Of a DNA stretch of 27,163 nucleotides, positions 31 through 27,163 are shown in pieces (positions within the stretch are counted from its first letter, which is position 1; every line of letters begins with the position of its first letter). A model generated the notes under the pieces. It searched no databases, had not been told where the DNA came from, and was given only the letters and a program-made list of their open reading frames with translations. The DNA is taken from assembly GCA_964517885.1 (NCBI GenBank), contig CAZFCT010000001.1:1-27163 (forward strand). The letters run 5' to 3'. Source of the stretch: Candidatus Woesearchaeota archaeon (lineage in GTDB: Archaea; Nanobdellota; Nanobdellia; Pacearchaeales; GW2011-AR1). The translations under genes and the position numbers were made by a program.

Positions 31-882
31 ATGAAAAAAGGTGAAAAGAAATTTGTGTTGTCAAATCGTTGGCTTTATACTTTTATAATTTTAGGAATTT
101 TTGCTGTTGTTGGTGTTGGAGTTTATGCTTATGGAACTTCAAGTCCTTCTACATTTGGACATAGTGCTGGTGAAATTGATTTAAGCGGAGTGGGGAATAT
201 TATTTCATCTGGGTATATTCATGGAAGTATAACTGGGGGAGATGCAAATTTGGGAAGTTCAACATATGAAATTTCAGGAACAAACATTGCAGGACAAACT
301 GTTTATGCTTATGGTTCAATGTGTGTTGGAAATTCTGTGGGAGATTGTTCTGGAACAGATGGAACAGTAATTACTAATACAATGGTTTCTACAGGGACAG
401 TCCATACAGGCGATTGGTTCCGTTCATTTGGGCAATCTGGATGGTATTCTCAAACTTATGGGGGGGGTTGGCATATGACTGATACTCAATGGATAAGGGC
501 ATATAATGGTAAATCTGTTTATAGTGCTGGACATATTCAAGCAGGAGGAAATATGCAAGCAGCGGGAAATATGTATGCAGCTTCTTTTATTTATTCTTCA
601 GATGAATCTTTGAAAGCAAATATTACTCAATTAAATAATGCTTTAGAAAAAGTTAAACAACTTGAAGGAGTTTCATTTAATTGGAAAGATACAGGCAGAA
701 AAGATATGGGTCTAATTGCACAAGATGTTGAGAAAATTATTCCTGAAATTGTTCATACTTCTGAAGAAGGTTTGAAATCTGTTGAATATGGAAATTTAGT
801 TGCAATCTTGATTGAAGCAGTTAAAGAACAACAAGAAGAAATTGATTCATTACAAAAACAAATTGACGAGTTAAGAAATTAA
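31..882 (+). CDS. Membrane-anchored/secreted tail-fibre-like protein with a PilV/tail-fibre-like Trp-Gly segment and a C-terminal peptidase S74 (intramolecular chaperone) domain plus coiled coil
   Basis: ATG at 31 (the track starts at an upstream TTG at 25). N-terminal hydrophobic segment WLYTFIILGIFAVVGVGVYAY. Segment DWFRSFGQSGWYSQTYGGGWHMTDTQWIRAYNGK at 409-531. S74 hallmarks SDESLKANI...GLIAQDVEKIIPEIV...VEYGNLVAILIEAVKEQQ followed by a coiled coil. Confidence 0.85.
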   Translation: MKKGEKKFVLSNRWLYTFIILGIFAVVGVGVYAYGTSSPSTFGHSAGEIDLSGVGNIISSGYIHGSITGGDANLGSSTYEISGTNIAGQTVYAYGSMCVGNSVGDCSGTDGTVITNTMVSTGTVHTGDWFRSFGQSGWYSQTYGGGWHMTDTQWIRAYNGKSVYSAGHIQAGGNMQAAGNMYAASFIYSSDESLKANITQLNNALEKVKQLEGVSFNWKDTGRKDMGLIAQDVEKIIPEIVHTSEEGLKSVEYGNLVAILIEAVKEQQEEIDSLQKQIDELRN

Positions 883-883
883 A

Positions 884-1474
884 ATGGATAGAAATAAAAA
901 AGAAGATTCTATGCGAAATGTTAAAAATTTAATAAATAAAAAAGTTTTTTTAATTTTTATTTTTGCTTTAGTATTTAGTTTATCTTCTGTTTTAGGAGCA
1001 TCTTTATCTTCTAGTGAGAGTTATAAGTATAAAGTTTATGGCAATGAGGGAATTTCAAGTTGGAGTCGTCCGGGTTATACTATTTTTATTCCAACAGGTT
1101 CTGCTGCAGAATGGAGTGCATTTAAATCTGCTGCAAGAAGTTTATGGAATATGAATTTTTGCACTGCTACTGATGGAGTTTGGGGAGACTGGAGTTGTTC
1201 TTGTGATGCTTATTGTCTAAATTTAGCTTGTGGTTCCTATACTGCTACTGGAACTTATACCTGTACTCGTGTACATACTACGAATGCTTATTGTGGAGGA
1301 AGTGAACCTTCTGGTGAGTCTTCATATTCAGAACCTTGTACTAAAGATTGTAGTTATGGTAGTTGTACTGGATCTGTTTCATGTGATAATAATCCCTATA
1401 CTCCAGATCAATGGAAATGGGTTACTTGTATAGGCAATATTTGTGATGCTTCTTCTACTGGAATATGCAATTAA
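884..1474 (+). CDS. Secreted Cys-rich protein with a thrombospondin type-1-like segment
   Basis: Signal peptide-like FLIFIFALVFSLSSVLGA (alternative start ATG 911). Segment IFIPTGSAAEWSAF. TSP1-like pattern DGVWGDWSCSC...TYTCTR...YCGG. 14 Cys in the C-terminal ~105 aa. Confidence 0.6.
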   Translation: MDRNKKEDSMRNVKNLINKKVFLIFIFALVFSLSSVLGASLSSSESYKYKVYGNEGISSWSRPGYTIFIPTGSAAEWSAFKSAARSLWNMNFCTATDGVWGDWSCSCDAYCLNLACGSYTATGTYTCTRVHTTNAYCGGSEPSGESSYSEPCTKDCSYGSCTGSVSCDNNPYTPDQWKWVTCIGNICDASSTGICN

Positions 1475-1476
1475 TC

Positions 1477-2196
1477 TTATCCGAGATATTCTTTAATAAC
1501 TTCTTCGGAGTTTCCTTCTTTTATGATTTTTCCTTCTTTAATTAAAATTACCTTATTACAATATTTTTGGATTAAATTCATATCATGACTTACTAAAATT
1601 ACACTAACTCCTTCTTTCACAATTTCTTTTATTTTTTGCACATTCTTCTTTTTGAATTCCTCGTCTCCTACTTCAAATATTTCATCTAATAATAAAATTT
1701 CTGGATTGCAATGAACTGCTATAGAAAAAGCAACTTTTTGCAACATTCCGTTGGAGAATTTATGTAATCTTGTGTTTACATATTCTGTTAATCCTGAAAA
1801 TTCAACTATTGAATTAAATCTTTTTTTTATTTCTTTTCTACTTAATCCGAAAAGAGCACACAATAAAAAAATGTTATCTTTCATTGTTAGCATTTCTTGA
1901 AATCCAGACGCTAAATTAATCAGAGAAATTATGTTCCCGTTTGTTTCAATATCTCCACTGTTTTGTCTATAAATTCTAGAAATTGTCCTTAAAAGAGTGC
2001 TTTTTCCTGAACCATTATCTCCAATTATTCCGAGGATTTCTCCTGAATTTACATTTAATGAAACTTCTTTTATAACATCAAATTCGTTTTCGTTAATTTT
2101 TTTATTTTTTAAAGAAAGAATTACATTAAGAAAATTTTTTGAAGACGAATTTTTTTTAAATTTTTTTGAAACATTTTTTAAAATTATTCTTTCCAT
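1477..2196 (-). CDS. wzt: Polysaccharide/teichoic-acid-type ABC exporter ATP-binding subunit (Wzt/TagH family)
   Basis: Walker A GDNGSGKST, signature FSNGM, Walker B ILLLDE, H-loop VSHD. Overlaps the stop of the adjacent permease by 1 nt. No C-terminal carbohydrate-binding domain. Confidence 0.9.
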   Translation of the reverse strand: MERIILKNVSKKFKKNSSSKNFLNVILSLKNKKINENEFDVIKEVSLNVNSGEILGIIGDNGSGKSTLLRTISRIYRQNSGDIETNGNIISLINLASGFQEMLTMKDNIFLLCALFGLSRKEIKKRFNSIVEFSGLTEYVNTRLHKFSNGMLQKVAFSIAVHCNPEILLLDEIFEVGDEEFKKKNVQKIKEIVKEGVSVILVSHDMNLIQKYCNKVILIKEGKIIKEGNSEEVIKEYLG

Positions 2197-2957
2197 TATA
2201 TCCTCTCCATAAATTTATGATTTAACTTTTCAAAAACAAAAACACCTAATAATAAAAATGAAACACTAAAAATAATTATTCCACAAATCATCCATGTTTC
2301 AGGTATCTTTTGATATATTATTATTTCTCTGGAAACTTTAATAAAATAATACAATGGGTTTAAAAGATTTATCTTGAATAAGAAAGTTCCTTTTTCTATT
2401 TCATAAAATATTGGAGTTCCAAACCAAATTAGTTTAGAAGCAAAAGCCCATATATTTTTAATATCCACAAAAAAAACAGATAGTGCACTAAGCAGAAGAG
2501 ATACTCCAAATATGAATAATGTAATAAATACGAGGATTAAAGGATAAAAAAAGATATTTGAAATATTAACTCCTAAATAAATCATAAAGAAAACTAGAAC
2601 TATAAATTCAAATATATGTGAATAGAGAAATTTTAAAACACTTCCTCCAACGAATGCAGAACGCGGAAAATTTATTGATTTGAAAATATGCCTGTTGTTT
2701 CTTATTAATTCTGTAGATTCACTTGTAGCTGACTGAAAAAAATTAAATATAATAATTCCTACAAATAAATATAGAGGATAATTTTTTATTTCAGAACCTA
2801 AATTCTGGGAGAATATAAAAAATAATAAACCAAAAAATAAAATCGGATTTAAAATATACCATAAAATTCCTAAATAACTCCCTTCGTTTCTTAATTTAAA
2901 TCCAGATTTTGCTAGATAAAAACTTAATTCAAGAAACCGTTTTATTTTTTTCTTCAT
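2196..2957 (-). CDS. wzm: ABC-2 type glycan exporter permease (Wzm/TagG family)
   Basis: About six TM segments. Family-typical GSYLGILWYILNP, KSINFPR, WFGTPIFY and LNPLYYFI. Upstream of and coupled to the wzt-like gene. Confidence 0.9.
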   Translation of the reverse strand: MKKKIKRFLELSFYLAKSGFKLRNEGSYLGILWYILNPILFFGLLFFIFSQNLGSEIKNYPLYLFVGIIIFNFFQSATSESTELIRNNRHIFKSINFPRSAFVGGSVLKFLYSHIFEFIVLVFFMIYLGVNISNIFFYPLILVFITLFIFGVSLLLSALSVFFVDIKNIWAFASKLIWFGTPIFYEIEKGTFLFKINLLNPLYYFIKVSREIIIYQKIPETWMICGIIIFSVSFLLLGVFVFEKLNHKFMERI

Positions 2958-3064
2958 AAATATTAACTCTTTTTCTAGTTTAAATTTTTATTTATTTTAT
3001 ATTGATAAATCTTATTCTTAAAAGATTTAGAAATGTTTTTAAATAAGTTAATCTTAAACTATTT

Positions 3065-3523
3065 ATGGAAAAAGGTGGTTTCAATAAATTAAATTTTAAA
3101 AGTATTTTAATCGTTGCAGCAATTTTAATTGTTATTATATCCCTAGTCGTATTTTTCTTTTGGCCCAAAGATAATTCCTTATTATCTGAAAAAGAGGTTT
3201 TGGATTATTGGGATATTTGTGGGTTAATTAAAATAGATATTAAAGAGGTAAATTGTGATGCTCAAGGATTTTGTGATGTTACAGTTCAAAAAGTTTCTGG
3301 AGAAAACATTGGAGGGTTTTATTTGTCCTTCTTGAATTCATTAGAAGAAGATAAAGAAGTTAGAGTATCAGAAAATTTTTCTTTTTCTCAAGAAGTTACT
3401 GTAGAAGTTGAAGGATTGGTTAATAGTGAAAGTATTGAATTGTTGCCTTTTATCCACGACACAACTAATGGAAGAAATATTGAACTTTATTGTTTTGAGT
3501 CTAAAAGTAATTATTCTTTTTAG
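3065..3523 (+). CDS. Small N-terminally anchored extracellular protein, possibly pilin-like beta domain
   Basis: One TM helix (ILIVAAILIVIISLVVFFFW), then a beta-rich domain with 4 Cys. No clear class III cleavage site. Confidence 0.55.
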   Translation: MEKGGFNKLNFKSILIVAAILIVIISLVVFFFWPKDNSLLSEKEVLDYWDICGLIKIDIKEVNCDAQGFCDVTVQKVSGENIGGFYLSFLNSLEEDKEVRVSENFSFSQEVTVEVEGLVNSESIELLPFIHDTTNGRNIELYCFESKSNYSF

Positions 3524-3563
3524 TTTTCTATAATTTTATATATCTTTTTTATTTAATATTTGA

Positions 3564-5066
3564 ATGATAAATTTTTTTAAAAAAATTGGGTTAAATAAAA
3601 AACAATTTATATTTTTTTTACTTGTTTGTCTTTTTGTTTCAATAATTTCTTTTTGTTTGCACTTTTTTAGTCAACCAAATATTTCTTTTTTCCCATCTCA
3701 TGTAGACGAATGGCATCATCTTTCACAAGCGAGGAATTTAGAAGAAGGTTCATACAATTTTAATTCTCTTCCTTCTTTAGAAATAGGTTTTCATTTTTTT
3801 CTTTTTTTATTAAATAAAATTTTCTCCTTAGTTCCTTTTTATAAAGTGATTTCTTTATTCTGGATATTTTTAACTTCAATTATCTTATTTTTTCTTATAT
3901 ATAAAATAACAGAAAAAAATTTCTTTGTTTCTATTTTTTCTATTTTATTTTTTGGAGCAATTGGAAGAGATAATCTTTTTTTAGGTTTCCCCCTTTTTAC
4001 TCCCTTAACTTTTGCAACGCCTCTTATTTTTATATATCTCTTTTTATTTATAGAAGGATTACAACAAAAAAACAAAAAAACTATTTTTATTAGTTTAATA
4101 ATTATGTTATCTCTAATATTATTTCATGCTCCCTCTGTTCTCTTTTCTTTTCCAATTCTAATTTTTTATCTTTTTTTATATAAAGAATTTGTGAAAAAAG
4201 AATTTCAATTTTTTTTACTTTTTTTGTTAGTTCCTTTAGGAGGTTTGTTTTTTTATCAATTAACAACAAAAATTAATTTATTTAATTTAAAAAATATTTT
4301 TAATCTTCTTATTTTTCCTAATAATTGGGGAGGTGTTAAAATAACAAATATTTCTTTTGTAAATCTTTATCCTTTAATTGGATTTCTTTTAGGCATTGTT
4401 GGCGGAATTGGTGTTTTTATTCAAAAAAGGAAAAAATATTTTCCTTATTTTCTTCTGGCAGGATACTTATTTATTTCCTTATTAATTTTTAATATTTTTA
4501 AAATTTCTTTATTTTCTCCTGTTCAGAGAAATTATTATTATTTTCTTCTTAGTTTACCCTTCTTGAGTTCATTGGGTTTTAATTACCTTTTGAATTTTTT
4601 TAAAAAACATTTAAACAAGATAGATACTCTTGCTAGATATAAAAAAATAAAAAAGGGTTTAGTTGTTTTTTTGATAATCTGTATTCTTTTTTTAATATAT
4701 TTCCCTTTATTTTTAGAAAGAGAATCTTTTTCTTATCAGACAATAAGTGCTGAAGAATACGCTGATTTGAAATACCTGTCTCAATTTCCTCTCGGAAATG
4801 TAATTGCTCCTTTACAATATCTTTCTGTAGCTATAAAATCTGTTTCAGGACACGAGCCAATTGCAACGCCGTATTTTTTTGGTGATGATGTCATTAGAGA
4901 AGATGTTAATCATTTTTTTGAAGAGATAACTTGTGCTGAAAAAAAATTTATTATTAAAAAATATTTTATAAGATATATAATTTCAAAAGAAAAAATCTCT
5001 TGCGAGGGATATAATTTGTTATATTACCACAATCTTTATATTTATAATACGTCCTTAGTTGATTAA
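3564..5066 (+). CDS. Polytopic membrane protein, probable GT-C fold glycosyltransferase
   Basis: About 11-12 TM segments. Acidic pair in the first external loop (HVDEWHHL), as in GT-C enzymes. Soluble C-terminal tail. Lies inside the glycosyltransferase cluster. Confidence 0.6.
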   Translation: MINFFKKIGLNKKQFIFFLLVCLFVSIISFCLHFFSQPNISFFPSHVDEWHHLSQARNLEEGSYNFNSLPSLEIGFHFFLFLLNKIFSLVPFYKVISLFWIFLTSIILFFLIYKITEKNFFVSIFSILFFGAIGRDNLFLGFPLFTPLTFATPLIFIYLFLFIEGLQQKNKKTIFISLIIMLSLILFHAPSVLFSFPILIFYLFLYKEFVKKEFQFFLLFLLVPLGGLFFYQLTTKINLFNLKNIFNLLIFPNNWGGVKITNISFVNLYPLIGFLLGIVGGIGVFIQKRKKYFPYFLLAGYLFISLLIFNIFKISLFSPVQRNYYYFLLSLPFLSSLGFNYLLNFFKKHLNKIDTLARYKKIKKGLVVFLIICILFLIYFPLFLERESFSYQTISAEEYADLKYLSQFPLGNVIAPLQYLSVAIKSVSGHEPIATPYFFGDDVIREDVNHFFEEITCAEKKFIIKKYFIRYIISKEKISCEGYNLLYYHNLYIYNTSLVD

Positions 5067-6201
5067 GATGGTTTCAGTTAAAATTCCAGAAATATCTATA
5101 ATCCTTCCATGTAGAAATGAAGAAAAAGCATTGAGTTTTTGTCTTGAAAATATTAAAGAAGTCATTAAAAAGAATGATCTTAATGCAGAAATAATTGTTT
5201 CTGATTCTTCTTCTGATAAATCACCTGAAATTGCGAAGGAACATAGTGTTGTTTTAATAAAACATAATAAAGAAGGATATGGAAATGCTTATCTTGAGGG
5301 ACTTAAACATGCGAAGGGAGAATATATTTTTATGGCAGATGCTGATGGAACTTATGATTTTAGAGAAATTCCTAAATTTATTAATTATTTAAAAAATGGT
5401 TATGGTTTTGTTATAGGAAATAGGTTTGGTGGAAGAATAGAAAAAAAAGCTATGCCTTGGTCTCATAAATATTTAGGAAATCCTGTTTTGTCTTTTTTAT
5501 TGAGATCTTTTTTTAAAACAAAAATTCGTGATGCTCATTGCGGAATGAGGGCAATAAAAAAAGATGCTTTGATAAAATTGGATTTGAAAACAACAGGGAT
5601 GGAATTTGCTTCTGAAATGATTATTAAAGCATTGAGAAATAATCTTAAAATAAAAGAAATTCCAATTAATTATTCTTGCAGAAAAGGAAAATCAAAACTT
5701 CGTTCATTATCTGATGGATGGAGACATCTTCGTTTTATGCTTTTGTATTCGCCTTTCTTTTTGTTTTTAATTCCAGGATTTATTCTTTTATTATTAGGAA
5801 TTATATCTGGAATCTTAATTTATTCTGGAATTGGTTTTTTTGGAATGACTTTTTTTTATCATCCTCTTTTTTTATCTTCTTTGTTTTTAATTTCAGGATA
5901 TCAAATTATTCTTTTTTTTATTTTTGCTAAAACTTATGCAATTAATCAATTAGGAGATAAACCTGTTTTGAATAATTTTTATAAATTTTTTTCTGTGGAA
6001 TTTGGAATTCTTGTAGGGCTTCTTTTTATTGTTGGAGGCTTAATTATTTATTCTTGTTTATTTTCTGGTTGGCTTAAAAGTTTTGGAGAGTTTGGGATTG
6101 CAGAAACAAAAAATTCAATTCTTGCATTTACTTTTATTATCCTTGGGATTCAGACAATTTCATCATCTTTTATGTTAAGTATCTTAGGGATTAAAAAATG
6201 A
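5059..6201 (+). CDS. GT2 dolichol-phosphate-hexose synthase-like glycosyltransferase with C-terminal TM helices
   Basis: ISIILPCRNEE, IIVSDSSSDKS, NKEGYGNA, DADGTYD, DAHCGMRAI and FASEMIIKA; hydrophobic C-terminal third. Likely start ATG 5068. Confidence 0.88.
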   Translation: MIKMVSVKIPEISIILPCRNEEKALSFCLENIKEVIKKNDLNAEIIVSDSSSDKSPEIAKEHSVVLIKHNKEGYGNAYLEGLKHAKGEYIFMADADGTYDFREIPKFINYLKNGYGFVIGNRFGGRIEKKAMPWSHKYLGNPVLSFLLRSFFKTKIRDAHCGMRAIKKDALIKLDLKTTGMEFASEMIIKALRNNLKIKEIPINYSCRKGKSKLRSLSDGWRHLRFMLLYSPFFLFLIPGFILLLLGIISGILIYSGIGFFGMTFFYHPLFLSSLFLISGYQIILFFIFAKTYAINQLGDKPVLNNFYKFFSVEFGILVGLLFIVGGLIIYSCLFSGWLKSFGEFGIAETKNSILAFTFIILGIQTISSSFMLSILGIKK

Positions 6202-7295
6202 AAATAGCGATTTTTCATAATTTTATGGATAATATTGGCGGTGCAGAAATTGTTTGTTTAAATTTAGCAAGGGAACTAAATGCAGACTTATATACAACAA
6301 ATATTGACGAAGATAAAATTCGTAAAATGGGTTTTGAAGATATTCTGTTTAGAATAAAATCAATTGGAAAGGTTCCTAGGGAAGCTCCTTTTAGACAACA
6401 GATTACTTTTATGAAATTTCGTAAATTGAATTTATCTGGGAAATACGATTTTTTTATTATTGGAGGAGATTGGGCGATTTCTGCTGCAGTTAATAATAAA
6501 CCAAACATAGAATATTTTCATTCGCCTTTAAATGAAATTTGGGAATTTAGAGATTATGTTAGAAAATCTTTGAAGCCGTGGATGAAACCAATTTACCACA
6601 TTTGGACTAATTATGTTAGAATTTTTTATAAAAAATATTTTAAACACGTTGAAAAAAGAGTTTGTAATTCAAAAAATACTCAGGATAGAATTAAAAAATA
6701 TCTAAATAGTGATGCGAGAATAATTTTCCCTCCTGTTGATACAAAGAAATATCATTTTGAAAAATCAAAAAATTTTTGGCTTTCTGTTAATAGACTTACT
6801 GCTCACAAAAGAATTGATATACAATTAAAAGCATTTAAAAAAATTCCAGAACAGAAATTAATTATTGTTGGTTCTTATGAAAATTCAAGAAGTTTTCTTC
6901 AGGAAAAAAAACATTTAGAAAAGATACTTCCCCCAAATGTGAAAATTGTTCATTGGGCTGATGATGAAAAATTGAAAGAACTTTATTCAACTTGTAAGGG
7001 ATTTATTACAACTGCAAAAGATGAGGATTTTGGTATGACTGCAATTGAAGCGATGGCCTCAGGAAAACCAGTTATTGCCCCAAATGAGGGGGGTTATAAA
7101 GAATCTATTATAGACGGAAAAACAGGAATTTTAATAGAAAATATCGATGAAGAAAAACTTGCAGAATCAGTTGAAAAATTAGGTGTAGAGTTAAAAAAGA
7201 AAACTAATAAATATAATGGGGCTTGTATAAAACAAGCGAGAAAATTTGATATTGAGAATTTTATTAAACAAATCAAAGAGGAAATAGGGGAATGA
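6198..7295 (+). CDS. GT4 (GT-B) glycosyltransferase
   Basis: N-terminal IGGAE; C-terminal EDFGMTAIEAMASGKPVIA. ATGA overlap with the upstream gene. Confidence 0.92.
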   Translation: MKIAIFHNFMDNIGGAEIVCLNLARELNADLYTTNIDEDKIRKMGFEDILFRIKSIGKVPREAPFRQQITFMKFRKLNLSGKYDFFIIGGDWAISAAVNNKPNIEYFHSPLNEIWEFRDYVRKSLKPWMKPIYHIWTNYVRIFYKKYFKHVEKRVCNSKNTQDRIKKYLNSDARIIFPPVDTKKYHFEKSKNFWLSVNRLTAHKRIDIQLKAFKKIPEQKLIIVGSYENSRSFLQEKKHLEKILPPNVKIVHWADDEKLKELYSTCKGFITTAKDEDFGMTAIEAMASGKPVIAPNEGGYKESIIDGKTGILIENIDEEKLAESVEKLGVELKKKTNKYNGACIKQARKFDIENFIKQIKEEIGE

Positions 7296-15215: not shown

Positions 15216-15305
15216 AATTAACTGCGGGTTTTTATGATGCAACCTGATAGAACTCAAATTTTACTACACAATAATTCTTAAAAACAGGTGATTTATACTT
15301 TAAGT

Positions 15306-15860
15306 ATGATAACTTATAATGATATTTATGAAGCGTCTAGAAAAGAGAGATATTCTGACCAACTTCAACCTTTACCGAAGAATTTTATTACAGAAGTTTC
15401 TGATTATCTTAAAGAGAAAAAGGAAATTGCGTCGAAGGATAATGATGTTTTTTCTGATGTTATTGTAAAAACAAAGAAACAATTAGAGAATGCGATTACG
15501 TTGTTTAAAGAATTAATTTTAAGAAGAAAGAAAAAGATTTTGAATTTGGTTTTAATTGCTGCTGAGACTGGGATTTCTAAACAGGATTTTGATAATATGC
15601 TTGCTTTTGAAAAATTGTTGTTTGATGATTTAATGAAAGCGATTGATATTTCTGAAAAAAAACTGGGGAATTTACTTAATGGTGAAAAAGATGAAAAGAA
15701 AAATGAACTTATTGTTTTTAAGGAAAATGTTGAAGAATTTATGGGATTAAATGGGGAGAAAATGGGTCCTTTTGAAAAAGGGCAAATTGCAAATCTTCCT
15801 AGAGAAATTGTGAAAATTTTAGTCGAAAGTGGGAAAGCAGATAAAGTTGAAGGGGAATAA
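15306..15860 (+). CDS. DNA replication complex GINS family protein (Gins51-like)
   Basis: ERYSDQLQPLPKNFITEV, LILRRKKKILNL helical A domain, and C-terminal B domain GEKMGPFEKGQIANLPREIVKILVESGKA. ATG 15306 preferred over the track's GTG at 15288. Confidence 0.85.
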   Translation: MITYNDIYEASRKERYSDQLQPLPKNFITEVSDYLKEKKEIASKDNDVFSDVIVKTKKQLENAITLFKELILRRKKKILNLVLIAAETGISKQDFDNMLAFEKLLFDDLMKAIDISEKKLGNLLNGEKDEKKNELIVFKENVEEFMGLNGEKMGPFEKGQIANLPREIVKILVESGKADKVEGE

Positions 15861-15964
15861 TTTTATAACTTTCTTTTATTTATCTTAATTATGAAAACTT
15901 CACAATTAATTACAGGAATTATTTGAAAGTGGAAAAGCAGAAAAGGTGGAAGGGGAATAATTTT
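15825..15964 (+). repeat. 40-bp imperfect direct repeat of the GINS 3' end (15825-15864 and 15925-15964)
   Basis: gaaagtgggaaagcagataaagttgaaggggaataatttt vs gaaagtggaaaagcagaaaaggtggaaggggaataatttt: 36/40 identical, 100 bp apart. Confidence 0.93.
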
Positions 15965-15984
15965 CAATTACTCTCATTATAATT

Positions 15985-16135
15985 AAAAGCCTGTAGAGGG
16001 ATTTTACTCGCACCCGTAAAAATTGCAATAAACATTTTCGGCATTTTTGCAAACGCTCGCCCCCGACGAAATCCTTCTGATTTAAGCGAGTTCAAATCTT
16101 ACAAATATAATTTCACTTCGTTCAATTATATGAGA
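15985..16135 (-). repeat. tRNA-Thr-associated structured mini-element (copy A), ending in a 20-bp duplicate of the tRNA 3' end
   Basis: aaaagcctgtagagggattt at 15985-16004 equals 16136-16155. Core 16006-16059 is 46/54 identical to 18005-18058. Hairpin at 16105-16131. Confidence 0.88.
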
Positions 16136-16138
16136 AAA

Positions 16139-16210
16139 AGCCTGTAGAGGGATTTGAACCCCCGACCTCCGGTTTACAAAACCGATGCTCTGCCACTGAG
16201 CTATACAGGC
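16139..16210 (-). tRNA. trnT: tRNA-Thr(UGU)
   Basis: Cloverleaf GCCTGTA/TACAGGC, D arm GCTC/GAGC, anticodon loop TT-TGT-AA, T loop TTCAAAT, U73 discriminator (archaeal Thr type), no encoded CCA. Confidence 0.97.
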
Positions 16211-16226
16211 ATAATTATTTGATAGA

Positions 16227-16248
16227 ATTAATGGTTTAAAAGATTTCT
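16227..16248 (-). promoter_or_regulatory. BRE/TATA promoter of tRNA-Thr, exact 22-bp copy 1
   Basis: Minus strand AGAAATCTTTTAAACCATTAAT, ending 16 nt upstream of the tRNA. Identical to 16492-16513. Confidence 0.75.
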
Positions 16249-16250
16249 TA

Positions 16251-16478
16251 TTATAACTTCTCTATAAATTGTTGGGCTTCTTCGAAAAGTCTTTCCCTAT
16301 AAATTTCATCTAAGTTAACATGTTTCAAGTATAGGGTAGCAACATCACTTTCAAATAAATTTTTTAATTCCCCCACATGTTCTTCGTAATATTTTTTCAT
16401 AAATTCGGAGGTTACTCTCTCTTTTGGAATTTTTAATCTCTTAGCTATTGCTTCAGTAAGAAATTCATTTAGGTTCAT
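16251..16478 (-). CDS. Hypothetical 75-aa protein, cassette between two identical promoter copies
   Basis: Intact ORF with ATG 13 nt downstream of the promoter repeat (leaderless spacing). No recognisable motif. Confidence 0.6.
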   Translation of the reverse strand: MNLNEFLTEAIAKRLKIPKERVTSEFMKKYYEEHVGELKNLFESDVATLYLKHVNLDEIYRERLFEEAQQFIEKL

Positions 16479-16491
16479 TTTAATATTAATT

Positions 16492-16513
16492 ATTAATGGT
16501 TTAAAAGATTTCT
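16492..16513 (-). promoter_or_regulatory. BRE/TATA promoter, exact 22-bp copy 2 (drives the 75-aa ORF)
   Basis: attaatggtttaaaagatttct, identical to 16227-16248. Confidence 0.72.
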
Positions 16514-16523
16514 GATAATTTAA

Positions 16524-17057
16524 TTATTTCTTTTTTGCGTCTAAGATTCTTATCTCACAGAGGGCGAGAGGATAAATCTTTTTGAGTTTTATACTTAATT
16601 TTTTCTGTAACTGATTTTGTAAAATTTCTGAGAAAAGTTCTTCTGCGTTTTTTGTTTTAACATATTCTAAAAGTTCTTTTTTTGCTTCGTTTCTCAAAGC
16701 TTTTCTAACTGCTCTTGAAACTTTTCTTCTTGTAACTAAGAAAGGTTTTATTTTCAAATAAGCATCTTTACATTCTGTATCAAAAGAATCTTCGACATAA
16801 TTTGTTCCTTTTCGAACCATTCTTCTAATAAAATAAGGCATTACTTCGAGTTTTTTTGGTATTGTTGTTGCTTTTTTGTCTTCAACTTTTACATTTAATG
16901 TAAGCATAACACTTTTTCCTTTCAAGGCCCTTGTTAAATCATATTTCATAAATCTATTATTGAGTTCTTCGATTTCGTAAGCTTGCATTTGTGTTTCTTT
17001 TCCAATTATTGGAATTTCCACTTCAAAAAATTTCTTTTTTCTTTTTGCTTGTGCCAT
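16524..17057 (-). CDS. rps3ae: 30S ribosomal protein eS1 (S3Ae)
   Basis: YFIRRMVRKGTNYVEDSF, KIKPFLVTRRKVSRAVRKALR and KKIYPLALCEIR. Confidence 0.93.
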   Translation of the reverse strand: MAQAKRKKKFFEVEIPIIGKETQMQAYEIEELNNRFMKYDLTRALKGKSVMLTLNVKVEDKKATTIPKKLEVMPYFIRRMVRKGTNYVEDSFDTECKDAYLKIKPFLVTRRKVSRAVRKALRNEAKKELLEYVKTKNAEELFSEILQNQLQKKLSIKLKKIYPLALCEIRILDAKKK

Positions 17058-17058
17058 T

Positions 17059-17367
17059 TTATTCTTGTATTATCTTGCCAACTCTTCTTCCCTTTTTCTG
17101 GTATTTAGATTTTTTGCAAGTTAAGCATGTATACATTATGTTTGTTTTTTTATTTGTTTTAGTTTTTCTTTTGAATTTTGAAACTGCGGGTTTACTCCAT
17201 CTTCCTAAATTTCCAATTCCTCTGTTTTTTCCTCTAAGTTTTGCCCTTTGTTTTGAACCTCTCTTTAGGGCTCCTCTCTTTGCTCCTGTAGAAACTAATT
17301 TGATTTTCTGTTCTGTTTTTTTCTTACAATAAGGACAATATCTTTTTGTCGTTTTAGGAATTTTCAT
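17059..17367 (-). CDS. rpl44e: 50S ribosomal protein eL42 (L44e)
   Basis: True start MKIPKTTKRYCPYCKKKT at 17367 (the track extends it upstream). Zn ribbon CxxC...CxxC (YTCLTCKK). BRE/TATA-like AAAAACTTTTTAAACC upstream. Confidence 0.92.
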   Translation of the reverse strand: MKIPKTTKRYCPYCKKKTEQKIKLVSTGAKRGALKRGSKQRAKLRGKNRGIGNLGRWSKPAVSKFKRKTKTNKKTNIMYTCLTCKKSKYQKKGRRVGKIIQE

Positions 17368-17427
17368 AAAATTGGTTGTTAAAATCGGTTTAAAAAGTTT
17401 TTTATACTGCAGTCCCGCAGTTAATTT

Positions 17428-17694
17428 ATGAGAGTTCAGTTTCCAAAAGGAATGCAGAGGAAATTTTTGCAAAAAGTTTTAGAAAAAATAAATTGTCCGT
17501 CGATAAGTGAACTTGCAAATAGATTAAATTCTAATTATTCTTCTCTTAAAAATTATTTTGCTGAAGAGAGATGTATTCCTGAAAGTTTGTTTGAAGATTT
17601 ATGCTATGTTTCAAAAATGAATAAATCAGAATTTAAGTTTGATATTTTGGGAGAAAATTGGGGACAGAGCAAAGGTGGGAAAAATAAATTTTGA
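17428..17694 (+). CDS. Small HTH-like protein ending in a WGQxKGG motif
   Basis: SISELANRLNSNYSSLKNYFAEERCIP has an HTH pattern. C-terminal ENWGQSKGG. Divergent from rpl44e. Confidence 0.6.
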   Translation: MRVQFPKGMQRKFLQKVLEKINCPSISELANRLNSNYSSLKNYFAEERCIPESLFEDLCYVSKMNKSEFKFDILGENWGQSKGGKNKF

Positions 17695-17955
17695 TTATTT
17701 TGTTAAATTTAATGTTGAGTTCAAACTTGCATTTTGAAAAAGATTTGAAATTTGTGTAGGAATTATTGGTTGACTGGTAAATATTCTATAAAAAATCCAT
17801 CCAATAATTAAAATTGCTATTAAAATTAAAATTTTGTTTAGGTTATTTTTTCTCTTTTTTTGAACAAAAGCATAACCACATTTTATACAATAAGAATCTG
17901 TTAGAGAATTTGCAGTTCCACATCGAGGACAATATTTTACACCTATTCTTTTCAT
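17695..17955 (-). CDS. Zinc-ribbon membrane protein
   Basis: CPRCG...CIKCG followed by one TM helix (ILILIAILIIGWIFY). Confidence 0.8.
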   Translation of the reverse strand: MKRIGVKYCPRCGTANSLTDSYCIKCGYAFVQKKRKNNLNKILILIAILIIGWIFYRIFTSQPIIPTQISNLFQNASLNSTLNLTK

Positions 17956-17990
17956 ATAATTAAATAATTTCTTAATTTATAAATTATTAT

Positions 17991-18112
17991 AATGGTCCCA
18001 CGTAACTCGCGCCCGCAAAAATTGCATTAAAAATTTCTGGCATTCTTACAAACGCTCGGAATCGGACATCCGATTTTAGAATATTATTTCAGCTTCATTT
18101 CATTCAACTGAA
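17991..18112 (-). repeat. tRNA-Val-associated structured mini-element (copy B), ending in a 12-bp duplicate of the tRNA 3' end
   Basis: aatggtcccacg at 17991-18002 equals 18113-18124. Core 18005-18058 is homologous to 16006-16059. Hairpin at 18087-18113. Confidence 0.88.
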
Positions 18113-18114
18113 AA

Positions 18115-18186
18115 TGGTCCCACGCAGAATCGGACTGCGATCTTGTCCACGTCAAGGACACGTCTTAGCCATTGGACTATGGGACC
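18115..18186 (-). tRNA. trnV: tRNA-Val(GAC)
   Basis: Acceptor GGTCCCA/TGGGACC, anticodon stem TGTCC/GGACA, loop TT-GAC-GT, T stem CGCAG/CTGCG with atypical loop TCCGATT, A73. Confidence 0.92.
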
Positions 18187-18336
18187 TAAAAACTACCTGC
18201 GGTTTTTTACGAATTCTACAACTCCACAGGAAGTTGAAATTAATTTTACTAAAAGAATATATTTTAAAAGATTATTCCTTTTTTATAACTAACTTACTTA
18301 GTTAATTATTTATTTAATTAATTTGTTATTTATTTA

Positions 18337-27048: not shown

Positions 27049-27132
27049 GCGGAATTGCCGGAGTGGTCAAACGGGACAGACTCAAAATCTGTTGGCTCAG
27101 TGCCTACAAAGGTTCGAATCCTTTATTCCGCA
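27049..27132 (+). tRNA. trnL: tRNA-Leu(CAA)
   Basis: GCGGAAT/ATTCCGC acceptor, anticodon arm ACAGA-CT-CAA-AA-TCTGT, long variable arm, AAAGG-TTCGAAT-CCTTT, A73. Confidence 0.97.
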
Positions 27133-27163
27133 TTTCTAGAAATAAATAACTCGGGATAACCTT

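Follow-up and report, generated by a model that had tools for sequence, protein, structure and literature searches.

Tandem-GA hairpins behind archaeal tRNA genes as candidate end modules of gene-less mini-insertions

The window under study—the whole stretch of 27,163 nucleotides from a Candidatus Woesearchaeota archaeon (contig CAZFCT010000001.1)—features two small hairpins directly behind the genes of tRNA-Thr and tRNA-Val. With moderate probability, these head hairpins are the conserved cis-acting end module of a family of gene-less, non-autonomous mini-insertions and are used by machinery that acts in trans. Comparison of the loci indicates that the hairpin is part of such a gene-less insertion and comes and goes with it between sister species, since sister species with near-identical tRNAs lack the hairpin, the core hairpin that accompanies it, and the flanking repeat. 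The fold would then be a cis-acting structure recognised or used at element ends by trans-acting insertion machinery. As no mobilising enzyme was found, the term recognition structure is derived from position, conservation, and fold.

Both tRNA genes are intact host genes on the minus strand: tRNA-Thr(TGT) at 16139–16210 (ARAGORN; Rfam tRNA, 73.2 bits) and tRNA-Val(GAC) at 18115–18186 (ARAGORN, Rfam). The Thr head hairpin reads ATATAATT-GAACGAAGTGA-AATTATAT on the minus strand (16131..16105). It consists of an 8-bp stem, a GA/GA tandem, an A-U pair, a C-G pair, and a GAA triloop, and it is the best match of R1 (34 bits), a covariance model of the head hairpin that was run on 101 related genomes. 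The Val head hairpin, TTTCAGTT-GAATGAAATGA-AGCTGAAA on the minus strand (18113..18087; R1, 31 bits), has an 8-bp stem including one G·T, followed by the GA/GA tandem, A-U, U-A, and the GAA triloop. The preliminary description of this DNA had placed two hairpins with 8-bp stems here, starting within about 8 nt of the discriminator base; both are present on the minus strand, and the measured distances are 7 nt at tRNA-Thr and 1 nt at tRNA-Val. The loop motif stands clearly above background: shuffles predict 0.10 occurrences of GAAYGAARTGA in the window, which contains two, and in several related genomes the pattern is far more frequent than its reversed control (8 versus 0 in G003, 8 versus 1 in G021). 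Because of the excess in the window, and because a stem of at least 8 bp around an 11-nt loop is found at just 8e-4 of all genome positions, a chance origin of the two hairpins is excluded. The description had further read the pair as fully swapped stems around a conserved loop. The conservation of the loop holds, with 9 of 11 positions identical between Thr and Val, but the stems are not free. The Val-type stem TTCAGTT/AACTGAA recurs with compensatory changes: two sister species have it behind tRNA-Val, and a Woesearchaeota MAG has it behind tRNA-Ala. The 8-bp stem is not universal, as many motif matches have a lower stem of 0–3 bp.

The supposed 11-nt loop is conserved in sequence, as described, but it is not open. 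Its bases read G·A, A·G, A-U, and Y-R, followed by the GAA triloop, and the fourth and eighth bases covary as C-G or T-A. Because of this covariation, the 11 nt are predicted to form a folded continuation of the helix through two purine mismatches, on a lower stem that need only pair. Counted by eye in 41 related genomes, the motif carries C..G at positions 4/8 in approximately 38 matches and T..A in approximately 48, against approximately 10 each of the forms C..A and T..G; the C..G form far exceeds the expectation for a genome of 29% G+C. In an alignment of 21 copies, 14 have CG and 7 have UA as the inner 4–8 pair, none has a mismatch there, and position 3–9 is A-U throughout. The 10-pair structure has 73% of its stem cells paired versus 54% in shuffles, and the covariation score of 0.565 versus 0.238 is reached by 0 of 500 shuffles—several rows were selected for having a stem, which inflates the figures for lower-stem pairing and leaves the inner Y-R pair unaffected. 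Controls with slid alignments give 28 to 42% pairing. The tandem G·A/A·G mismatches sit in a Y-GA-R context, and such a context favours sheared tandem GA pairs.

The inserts behind the two tRNAs share one order of parts. Reading 3′ of each tRNA on the minus strand, these are the head hairpin, a segment antisense to the T-loop, a sense copy of the T-arm, a 53-nt core hairpin, and a copy of the tRNA tail. At tRNA-Thr, the insert lies between two copies of an exact 20-nt direct repeat that are 151 nt apart. The first copy (16136–16155) runs from T-loop position 57 to the discriminator plus TTT, and the second (15985–16004) is the displaced tail of tRNA-Thr. In between, a 9-nt segment antisense to the T-loop, with the match GATTTGAAC, lies at 16090–16098, and an 8-nt sense copy of the 5′ side of the T-stem—the left arm of the split tail copy—at 16060–16067. 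The Thr core (16007–16059) is closed by the same C-GA...GA-G foot as the head hairpin, replaces the TTC of the T-loop in the tail copy, and occurs in three copies in the genome. At tRNA-Val, the 7-nt antisense segment (18069–18075) pairs with the adjoining 9-nt sense copy of the T-loop (18059–18067), which again is the left arm of the split tail copy. The Val core (18006–18058) is 85% identical to the Thr core, and a 12-nt tail repeat has its first copy at 18113–18124 and its second at 17991–18002. On contig 21, the third core interrupts a duplicated stretch that comprises the final ~44 nt of a protein gene. The CGA/GAG ends are invariant among twelve cores, which come from five genomes, and enclose a covarying 10-bp helix with compensatory changes at 8 of 13 core pairs; mini versions with a 3-nt apex occur as well (CGAGCG-TTA-GCGAG and CGAGCG-AAA-GCGAG). 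To judge from these parts, head hairpin and core represent two sizes of one structural module, placed in the same orientation at opposite ends of the insert. Since a head hairpin alone stands behind tRNA-Val of G014, with no tail copy, head and core may be separate insertions rather than the two ends of one element. The insert size is about 120–150 nt at tRNA-Thr and tRNA-Val and 34–70 nt elsewhere in the genome. Across this range of 34–150 nt, the inserts hold hairpins only and no genes. Whole inserts fold no better than shuffles; the individual hairpins do.

The same genome carries further duplications of this kind. Duplicates of their own ends (10–36 nt) accompany 8 of the 34 predicted tRNA genes, and module remnants are found at three more. 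Inserts of a short type behind tRNA-Ile(TAT), tRNA-Tyr, and tRNA-Arg(CCT) combine a segment antisense to the T-loop with two hairpins, one the conserved TTTCATTTG...CGAATGAG and the other a GA/GA hairpin that is of the same kind as the head hairpin and adjoins the tail copy. The repeats measure 20 nt at Thr, 21 at Tyr, and 19 at Arg, and duplications reach 52 nt at ORF ends. Repeats stop 0–3 nt past the gene—20 nt past it at tRNA-Ile—and start mostly after T54-T55; the left boundary often follows the GGTT of the T-loop, yet it is variable. Behind the SRP RNA gene (Rfam), a repeat of 27 nt from the SRP 3′ end brackets a 34-nt insert with a Val-type apex. Here the hairpin is reversed, the motif strand being antisense to the gene, and G004 features the same arrangement. 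Insertions thus occur in both orientations, and also at ORF ends and at a tRNA 5′ end. In the latter case, a 16-nt duplicate of the 5′ end lies 135 nt upstream of tRNA-Ile(GAT) on contig C22 (6583–6733), and the stretch between duplicate and gene contains two motif-like GA/GA hairpins, both reversed; therefore, tRNA 5′ ends are targets too.

Two further repeats were noticed beside the Thr locus. The last ~40 nt of the ORF at 15288–15860 on the plus strand, including the stop codon, are repeated ~100 nt downstream (15800–15962; ~34 of 40 identical by eye), and this gene-end duplication adjoins the tRNA-Thr insert. Just upstream of tRNA-Thr, an exact 22-nt direct repeat (16227–16248 and 16492–16513) flanks an ORF of 75 aa on the minus strand (16251–16478). 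Other candidates were discarded. The 55-nt "repeats" exactly 100 N apart (27109–27163 onward on C1; C3:7996) are overlaps at scaffold gaps, and the tail duplicate of tRNA-Leu(CAA) at the window end, bordering a 100-N gap, is an assembly artefact.

Within the same genus, the hairpin, the core, and the repeat are lacking at tRNA-Thr of G005 and G002, which has an identical 3′ end, and at tRNA-Val of G013, which is 97% identical. In G004, tRNA-Val is followed by the hairpin, the arm, a longer core, and a decayed tail copy, and tRNA-Thr of G009 carries a different module set at the same T-loop position. The preliminary description had considered a processing factor for the tRNA transcript as the partner of the hairpin. 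Such a role is unlikely because sister species with near-identical tRNAs do without the hairpin and because it is inverted behind the SRP RNA gene. Its other suggestion, that the hairpin marks one end of an element, agrees with the position directly 3′ of the tRNA and ahead of the other modules and the tail copy, a position that recurs behind tRNA-Lys, tRNA-Ile, tRNA-Glu, and tRNA-Ala elsewhere.

Among the 101 related genomes, R1 finds matches in 40; within the family, 34 of 60 genomes are positive, and in the rest of the order, 6 of 40. The number of matches reaches 16 in G066, 15 in G083, and 9 in G084. An exact search for the conserved junction of hairpin and motif in one genome per species (185,579) returned 18 matches, of which 8 are in MAGs titled Pacearchaeota, Woesearchaeota, Nanoarchaeota, or Nanoarchaeia. 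Six of these eight DPANN loci lie directly behind a tRNA and have a perfect tail repeat of 13–20 nt, and in six DPANN MAGs the second hairpin of the short type adjoins the tail copy. The family is common in DPANN archaea of the Pacearchaeota/Woesearchaeota type. At locus L159 (tRNA-Ala), a Val-type head hairpin right after the tRNA is followed by short-type modules; therefore, the Thr/Val head hairpin and the short-type inserts belong to the same family. A generic scan for tandem-GA hairpins was swamped by GAA/GAT-rich coding sequence (552 matches versus 287 in the control), and a tighter pattern gave 29 versus 12. In G084, at least six different tRNAs are followed by near-identical units, which in each case come with a matching antisense segment and tail copy of their own. 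These loci (L170 and L198–L202; Arg, two Leu, Gln, Lys, and Asn) hold arrays of 2–4 near-identical hairpin units ending in ...GTGAGGCC, which follow one another with the antisense T-arm segment on one side and the tail copy on the other and look like repeated insertions at the same site. The literature was searched, and no published description of these hairpin-headed mini-insertions was found.

The head hairpin folds from one strand. Non-Watson–Crick positions in the stems are G·T on the GAAYGAARTGA strand in the Val copies of this genome (G000) and G014, in the SRP copies of G000 and G004, and in two copies of G003; the sole C/A mismatch belongs to a decayed copy behind tRNA-Arg(TCT). The Val stems of G000 and G014 differ by one double compensatory change and two switches between wobble and Watson–Crick pairs, and the closing pairs of the two SRP copies differ by a compensatory change. 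Because the wobble pairs fall almost only on the motif strand, a single strand—RNA or ssDNA—is the folded form, not a duplex site. The fold would accordingly act as single-stranded nucleic acid, either as ssDNA or as a transcript of the element. The core features U·G at three consecutive columns (12/12, 12/12, and 9/12 copies). The predicted folding energy of the Val core with RNA parameters is −16.3 kcal/mol for the minus strand (z −2.1) and −6.2 for the plus strand; DNA parameters give just −4.1 kcal/mol. The three consecutive G·U pairs and the predicted energies suit RNA better than ssDNA.

The preliminary description had also likened the loop to the GCGAAGC-type mini-hairpins, and the likeness is found: the Thr apex is A-C-GAA-G-T with a C-G pair closing the GAA triloop, and the Thr copy and most relatives have C-GAA-G. 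As in d(GCGAAGC) mini-hairpins, the GAA triloop can form a sheared G·A, a conserved apex stands on a variable stem, and one strand folds (PMC13037366). The apex is likewise flanked by tandem GA mismatches in a Y-GA-R context. Unlike d(GCGAAGC), the Val-type apex is T-GAA-A, closed by T-A, and the partner core has three G·U-type pairs that suit RNA better. Mini-hairpins of the GCGAAGC type mark ssDNA origins, ssiA, and the hairpin promoters of phage N4, and the C-GAA-G mini-hairpin melts at 76.5 °C as DNA and at 39 °C as RNA (PMC13037366). This stability as DNA, the antisense SRP copies, the reversed hairpin behind tRNA-Ser(TGA), and the T-runs before the hairpin make up the evidence on the DNA side. 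There is thus evidence both for RNA and for DNA as the acting molecule.

A hairpin that works as RNA could be a protein-binding or stabilising module (e.g., for L7Ae) or part of a guide-like RNA whose sense and antisense tRNA segments would pair with the target; the insert would then be transcribed with or like the tRNA, as are the tRNA-linked repeats of E. coli (RtT). G·U wobbles are placed almost only on the strand codirectional with the tRNA, the core folds well only on this strand and with RNA parameters, most of the tRNA-linked copies seen share the orientation of the tRNA, and the same module vocabulary appears inside tRNA introns, which are transcribed. Tandem sheared GA beside a C-G pair is, in addition, a classic protein-binding motif of RNA. 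However, a run of T4–T6 often separates tRNA and hairpin (T5 at Thr, counting the discriminator, and T4 at Val), in two species the SRP RNA gene has the motif on its antisense strand, and behind tRNA-Ser(TGA) the hairpin points the other way. Neither a K-turn nor a K-loop is formed: in the arrangement stem-GA-AY-GAA-RU-GA-stem, the GA pairs adjoin the stem on both strands, positions 4/8 pair, and the 3-nt bulge is missing. Sister species without the hairpin indicate that it is not needed for tRNA maturation, and Rfam searches with E relaxed to 10 returned tRNAs and noise but no family for the hairpin. A function as RNA is therefore judged unlikely as an explanation of its own; it is compatible with mobility and does not exclude it.

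Taken as the end module of a mini-insertion, the hairpin fits a simple scheme. Two staggered cuts would be made, one in the T-loop-coding DNA (mostly after T54-T55) and one 0–20 nt past the end of the tRNA, and the stretch between both cuts would be duplicated on insertion. The upstream copy would stay an intact tRNA gene, which is why only insertions that straddle the gene end would survive. Disruption of tRNA genes by mobile elements has been described (PMC3293823), and the geometry of the repeats resembles that of T-loop-class elements with a tyrosine integrase, in which a direct repeat spans the tRNA gene between T-loop and 3′ end, the upstream copy rebuilds the gene, and a displaced tail lies downstream. 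A repeat of this class was found at Thr, Tyr, and Arg and at six DPANN MAG loci (13–20 nt). The inserts might accordingly be miniature or decayed integrative elements that arose by a tyrosine-integrase crossover in the T-loop, with the repeats as attL/attR identity blocks and the hairpin as an attP arm or accessory site. This would agree with repeats that, like those of tRNA-targeting integrases, begin in the T-loop and stop at the tRNA 3′ end or slightly beyond it, and with an upstream copy that restores the gene. The genome does contain a genuine element of that type, with the sole integrase located beside a tRNA gene: on contig C2 (~42–6718), ~6.6 kb are integrated at tRNA-Asp(GTC), where a tyrosine integrase of 400 aa immediately follows the tRNA and 13 nt of the tRNA 3′ end recur on the opposite side. 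That element, however, has none of the hairpin modules. The inserts, unlike integrative elements, contain no integrase or any other gene, measure 34–150 nt—those of 34–70 nt being too small for duplex circles—and place near-identical modules at many targets in both orientations, including a tRNA 5′ end and ORF ends. The repeat at tRNA-Ile runs 20 nt into the non-genic flank and fits a local duplication, not a block borne by the element. For the units of G084, which come with individual tail copies behind at least six tRNAs, attP would have to change its target rapidly, and no tyrosine recombinase was detected in the hairpin-rich G003 and G083. An origin from integrative elements is thus quite improbable.

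Still less probable is the reading of the hairpin as the sub-terminal structure of an IS200/IS605- or REP/RAYT-type element that is moved as ssDNA by a Y1 HUH transposase, the enzyme proposed in the preliminary description. A conserved apex, variable stems, and a fold on one strand are what HUH enzymes use, and hairpins of one strand also mark the element ends of IS200/IS605 and of their gene-less derivatives, the PATEs. The short target-complementary segment 5′ of the hairpin foot recalls the IS608 guide. In G044 (L093/L081), the exact motif, flanked by CTCC/GGA, lies inside the right-end hairpin of an IS200-like element just after the Y1 TnpA gene; G069 (L172) has the same right-end motif by eye, and G055 (L091) a variant TCTCGC-GAA-GCGAGA at the corresponding position. 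The IS200-like right-end hairpins of these three genomes carry a branch of two hairpins, the first with a C-GAA-G apex. Within these elements, though, the motif forms an added branch that emerges from the TnpA hairpin loop, and simpler relatives lack it. IS200/IS605 elements insert 3′ of a short fixed target word and make no target duplication, whereas the inserts are flanked by repeats of 10–36 nt and have a complementary segment of 7–12 nt that matches the T-loop. Y1_Tnp (PF01797) is present in 14 of 61 relatives, but it was found neither in G000 and the hairpin-rich G003 nor in G004, G032, G066, G083, and G084, with 4–16 hairpins each. Matches of R1 are spread over 8 of 14 Y1-positive and 19 of 47 Y1-negative genomes, with no clear association. 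As to a REP/RAYT element, REP elements conserve the stem, not the apex, whereas here the apex is conserved and the stems vary; there are about a dozen copies per genome and no Y1/RAYT gene.

The enzyme searches, that for Y1_Tnp included, covered genomes that are 77–87% complete, so that absences are not proof. In G000, the searches for Y1 HUH, TnpB, IS110, RT, and Cas1 gave no matches or sub-threshold matches at most, with neither IS110 nor Cas1 found, and RT was found in none of six genomes, namely G000 and hairpin-rich relatives. G000 has one serine recombinase, on contig C18 and without module context, and two tyrosine recombinases, one Xer-like and one in the unrelated tRNA-Asp element. 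Viral contigs yielded no candidate for a parent virus: 13 matches of the module junction and 7 of the core start in viral contigs are nearly all chance matches in coding sequence of unrelated phages.

Several further systems were compared with the inserts. In the tRNA-linked repeats of E. coli (tyrT operon, RtT RNA, RF00391), a structured non-coding unit ends in a second copy of the tRNA 3′ end of ~19 nt. The inserts share with RtT the sequence of tRNA gene, structured non-coding unit, and second copy of the gene's own 3′ end. Unlike RtT, the units are polymorphic between sister species, stand behind many tRNAs, the SRP RNA, and ORF ends, and carry a segment antisense to the T-loop; neither RF00391 nor any other Rfam family matches 15900–18250 at the gathering score or at E up to 10. 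Each of the T-loop integrative elements, RtT, and IS200/IS605 hence has a defining property that the inserts do not share. A MITE of a DDE transposon was rejected as well, the end hairpins being in direct, not inverted, orientation and the duplications, instead of having a short fixed length, varying from 10 to 36 nt and reaching 52 nt at ORF ends. The inserts do not resemble H/ACA or C/D guide RNAs, since they lack the boxes and since the arms next to the core carry tRNA sequence in sense rather than antisense orientation. The core cannot be a functional tRNA intron because its excision would leave a T-loop of 4–6 nt.

A possible link to tRNA introns is nevertheless suggested for the mobile modules. 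Fujishima and colleagues are said to have described, in 2010, transposed tRNA introns of the bulge-helix-bulge type in Thermoproteales. The modules resemble these in that small related sequences occupy many tRNA positions and in that the intron module of tRNA-Gly(GCC) recurs outside tRNAs; unlike them, hairpin and core lie outside the functional tRNA. The 60-nt intron predicted by ARAGORN in tRNA-Gly(GCC) (C9:982–1112) shares a 39–45-nt module with non-tRNA sites at 88–92% identity (C3:26357–26395, L038:268–305, and L069:275–319). One such module, judged by eye, immediately precedes the start codon of an RNase HII-like gene. In G003, an intron-like module separates the real tRNA-Ser(TGA) from a 13-nt duplicate of its 5′ end and lies beside a GAACGAAGTGA motif, and the intron of tRNA-Glu(TTC) also holds module-like pieces. 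A tentative and unlikely proposal is that the modules are the working parts of a new kind of mobile element that needs no transposase of its own, targets hairpin loops or gene ends by short segments matching both strands, namely the antisense T-loop segment and the sense arms, makes long and variable duplications, and becomes a tRNA intron where the splicing endonuclease clears the loop.

With approximately a quarter to a third of the tRNA genes in a genome of 0.5 Mb carrying insertions, these mini-insertions are a major shaper of the tRNA loci of DPANN archaea. They are also a trap for tRNA annotation because tail fragments remain. The conserved end fold of tandem GA and GAA provides a handle for finding the insertion machinery. 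If the proposal of a new kind of element holds, the insertions would still be supplying archaea with tRNA introns and fragments of tRNA genes. And should these modules also give rise to tRNA introns, a long-standing question would become testable in these genomes, namely where archaeal tRNA introns originate and how they move.
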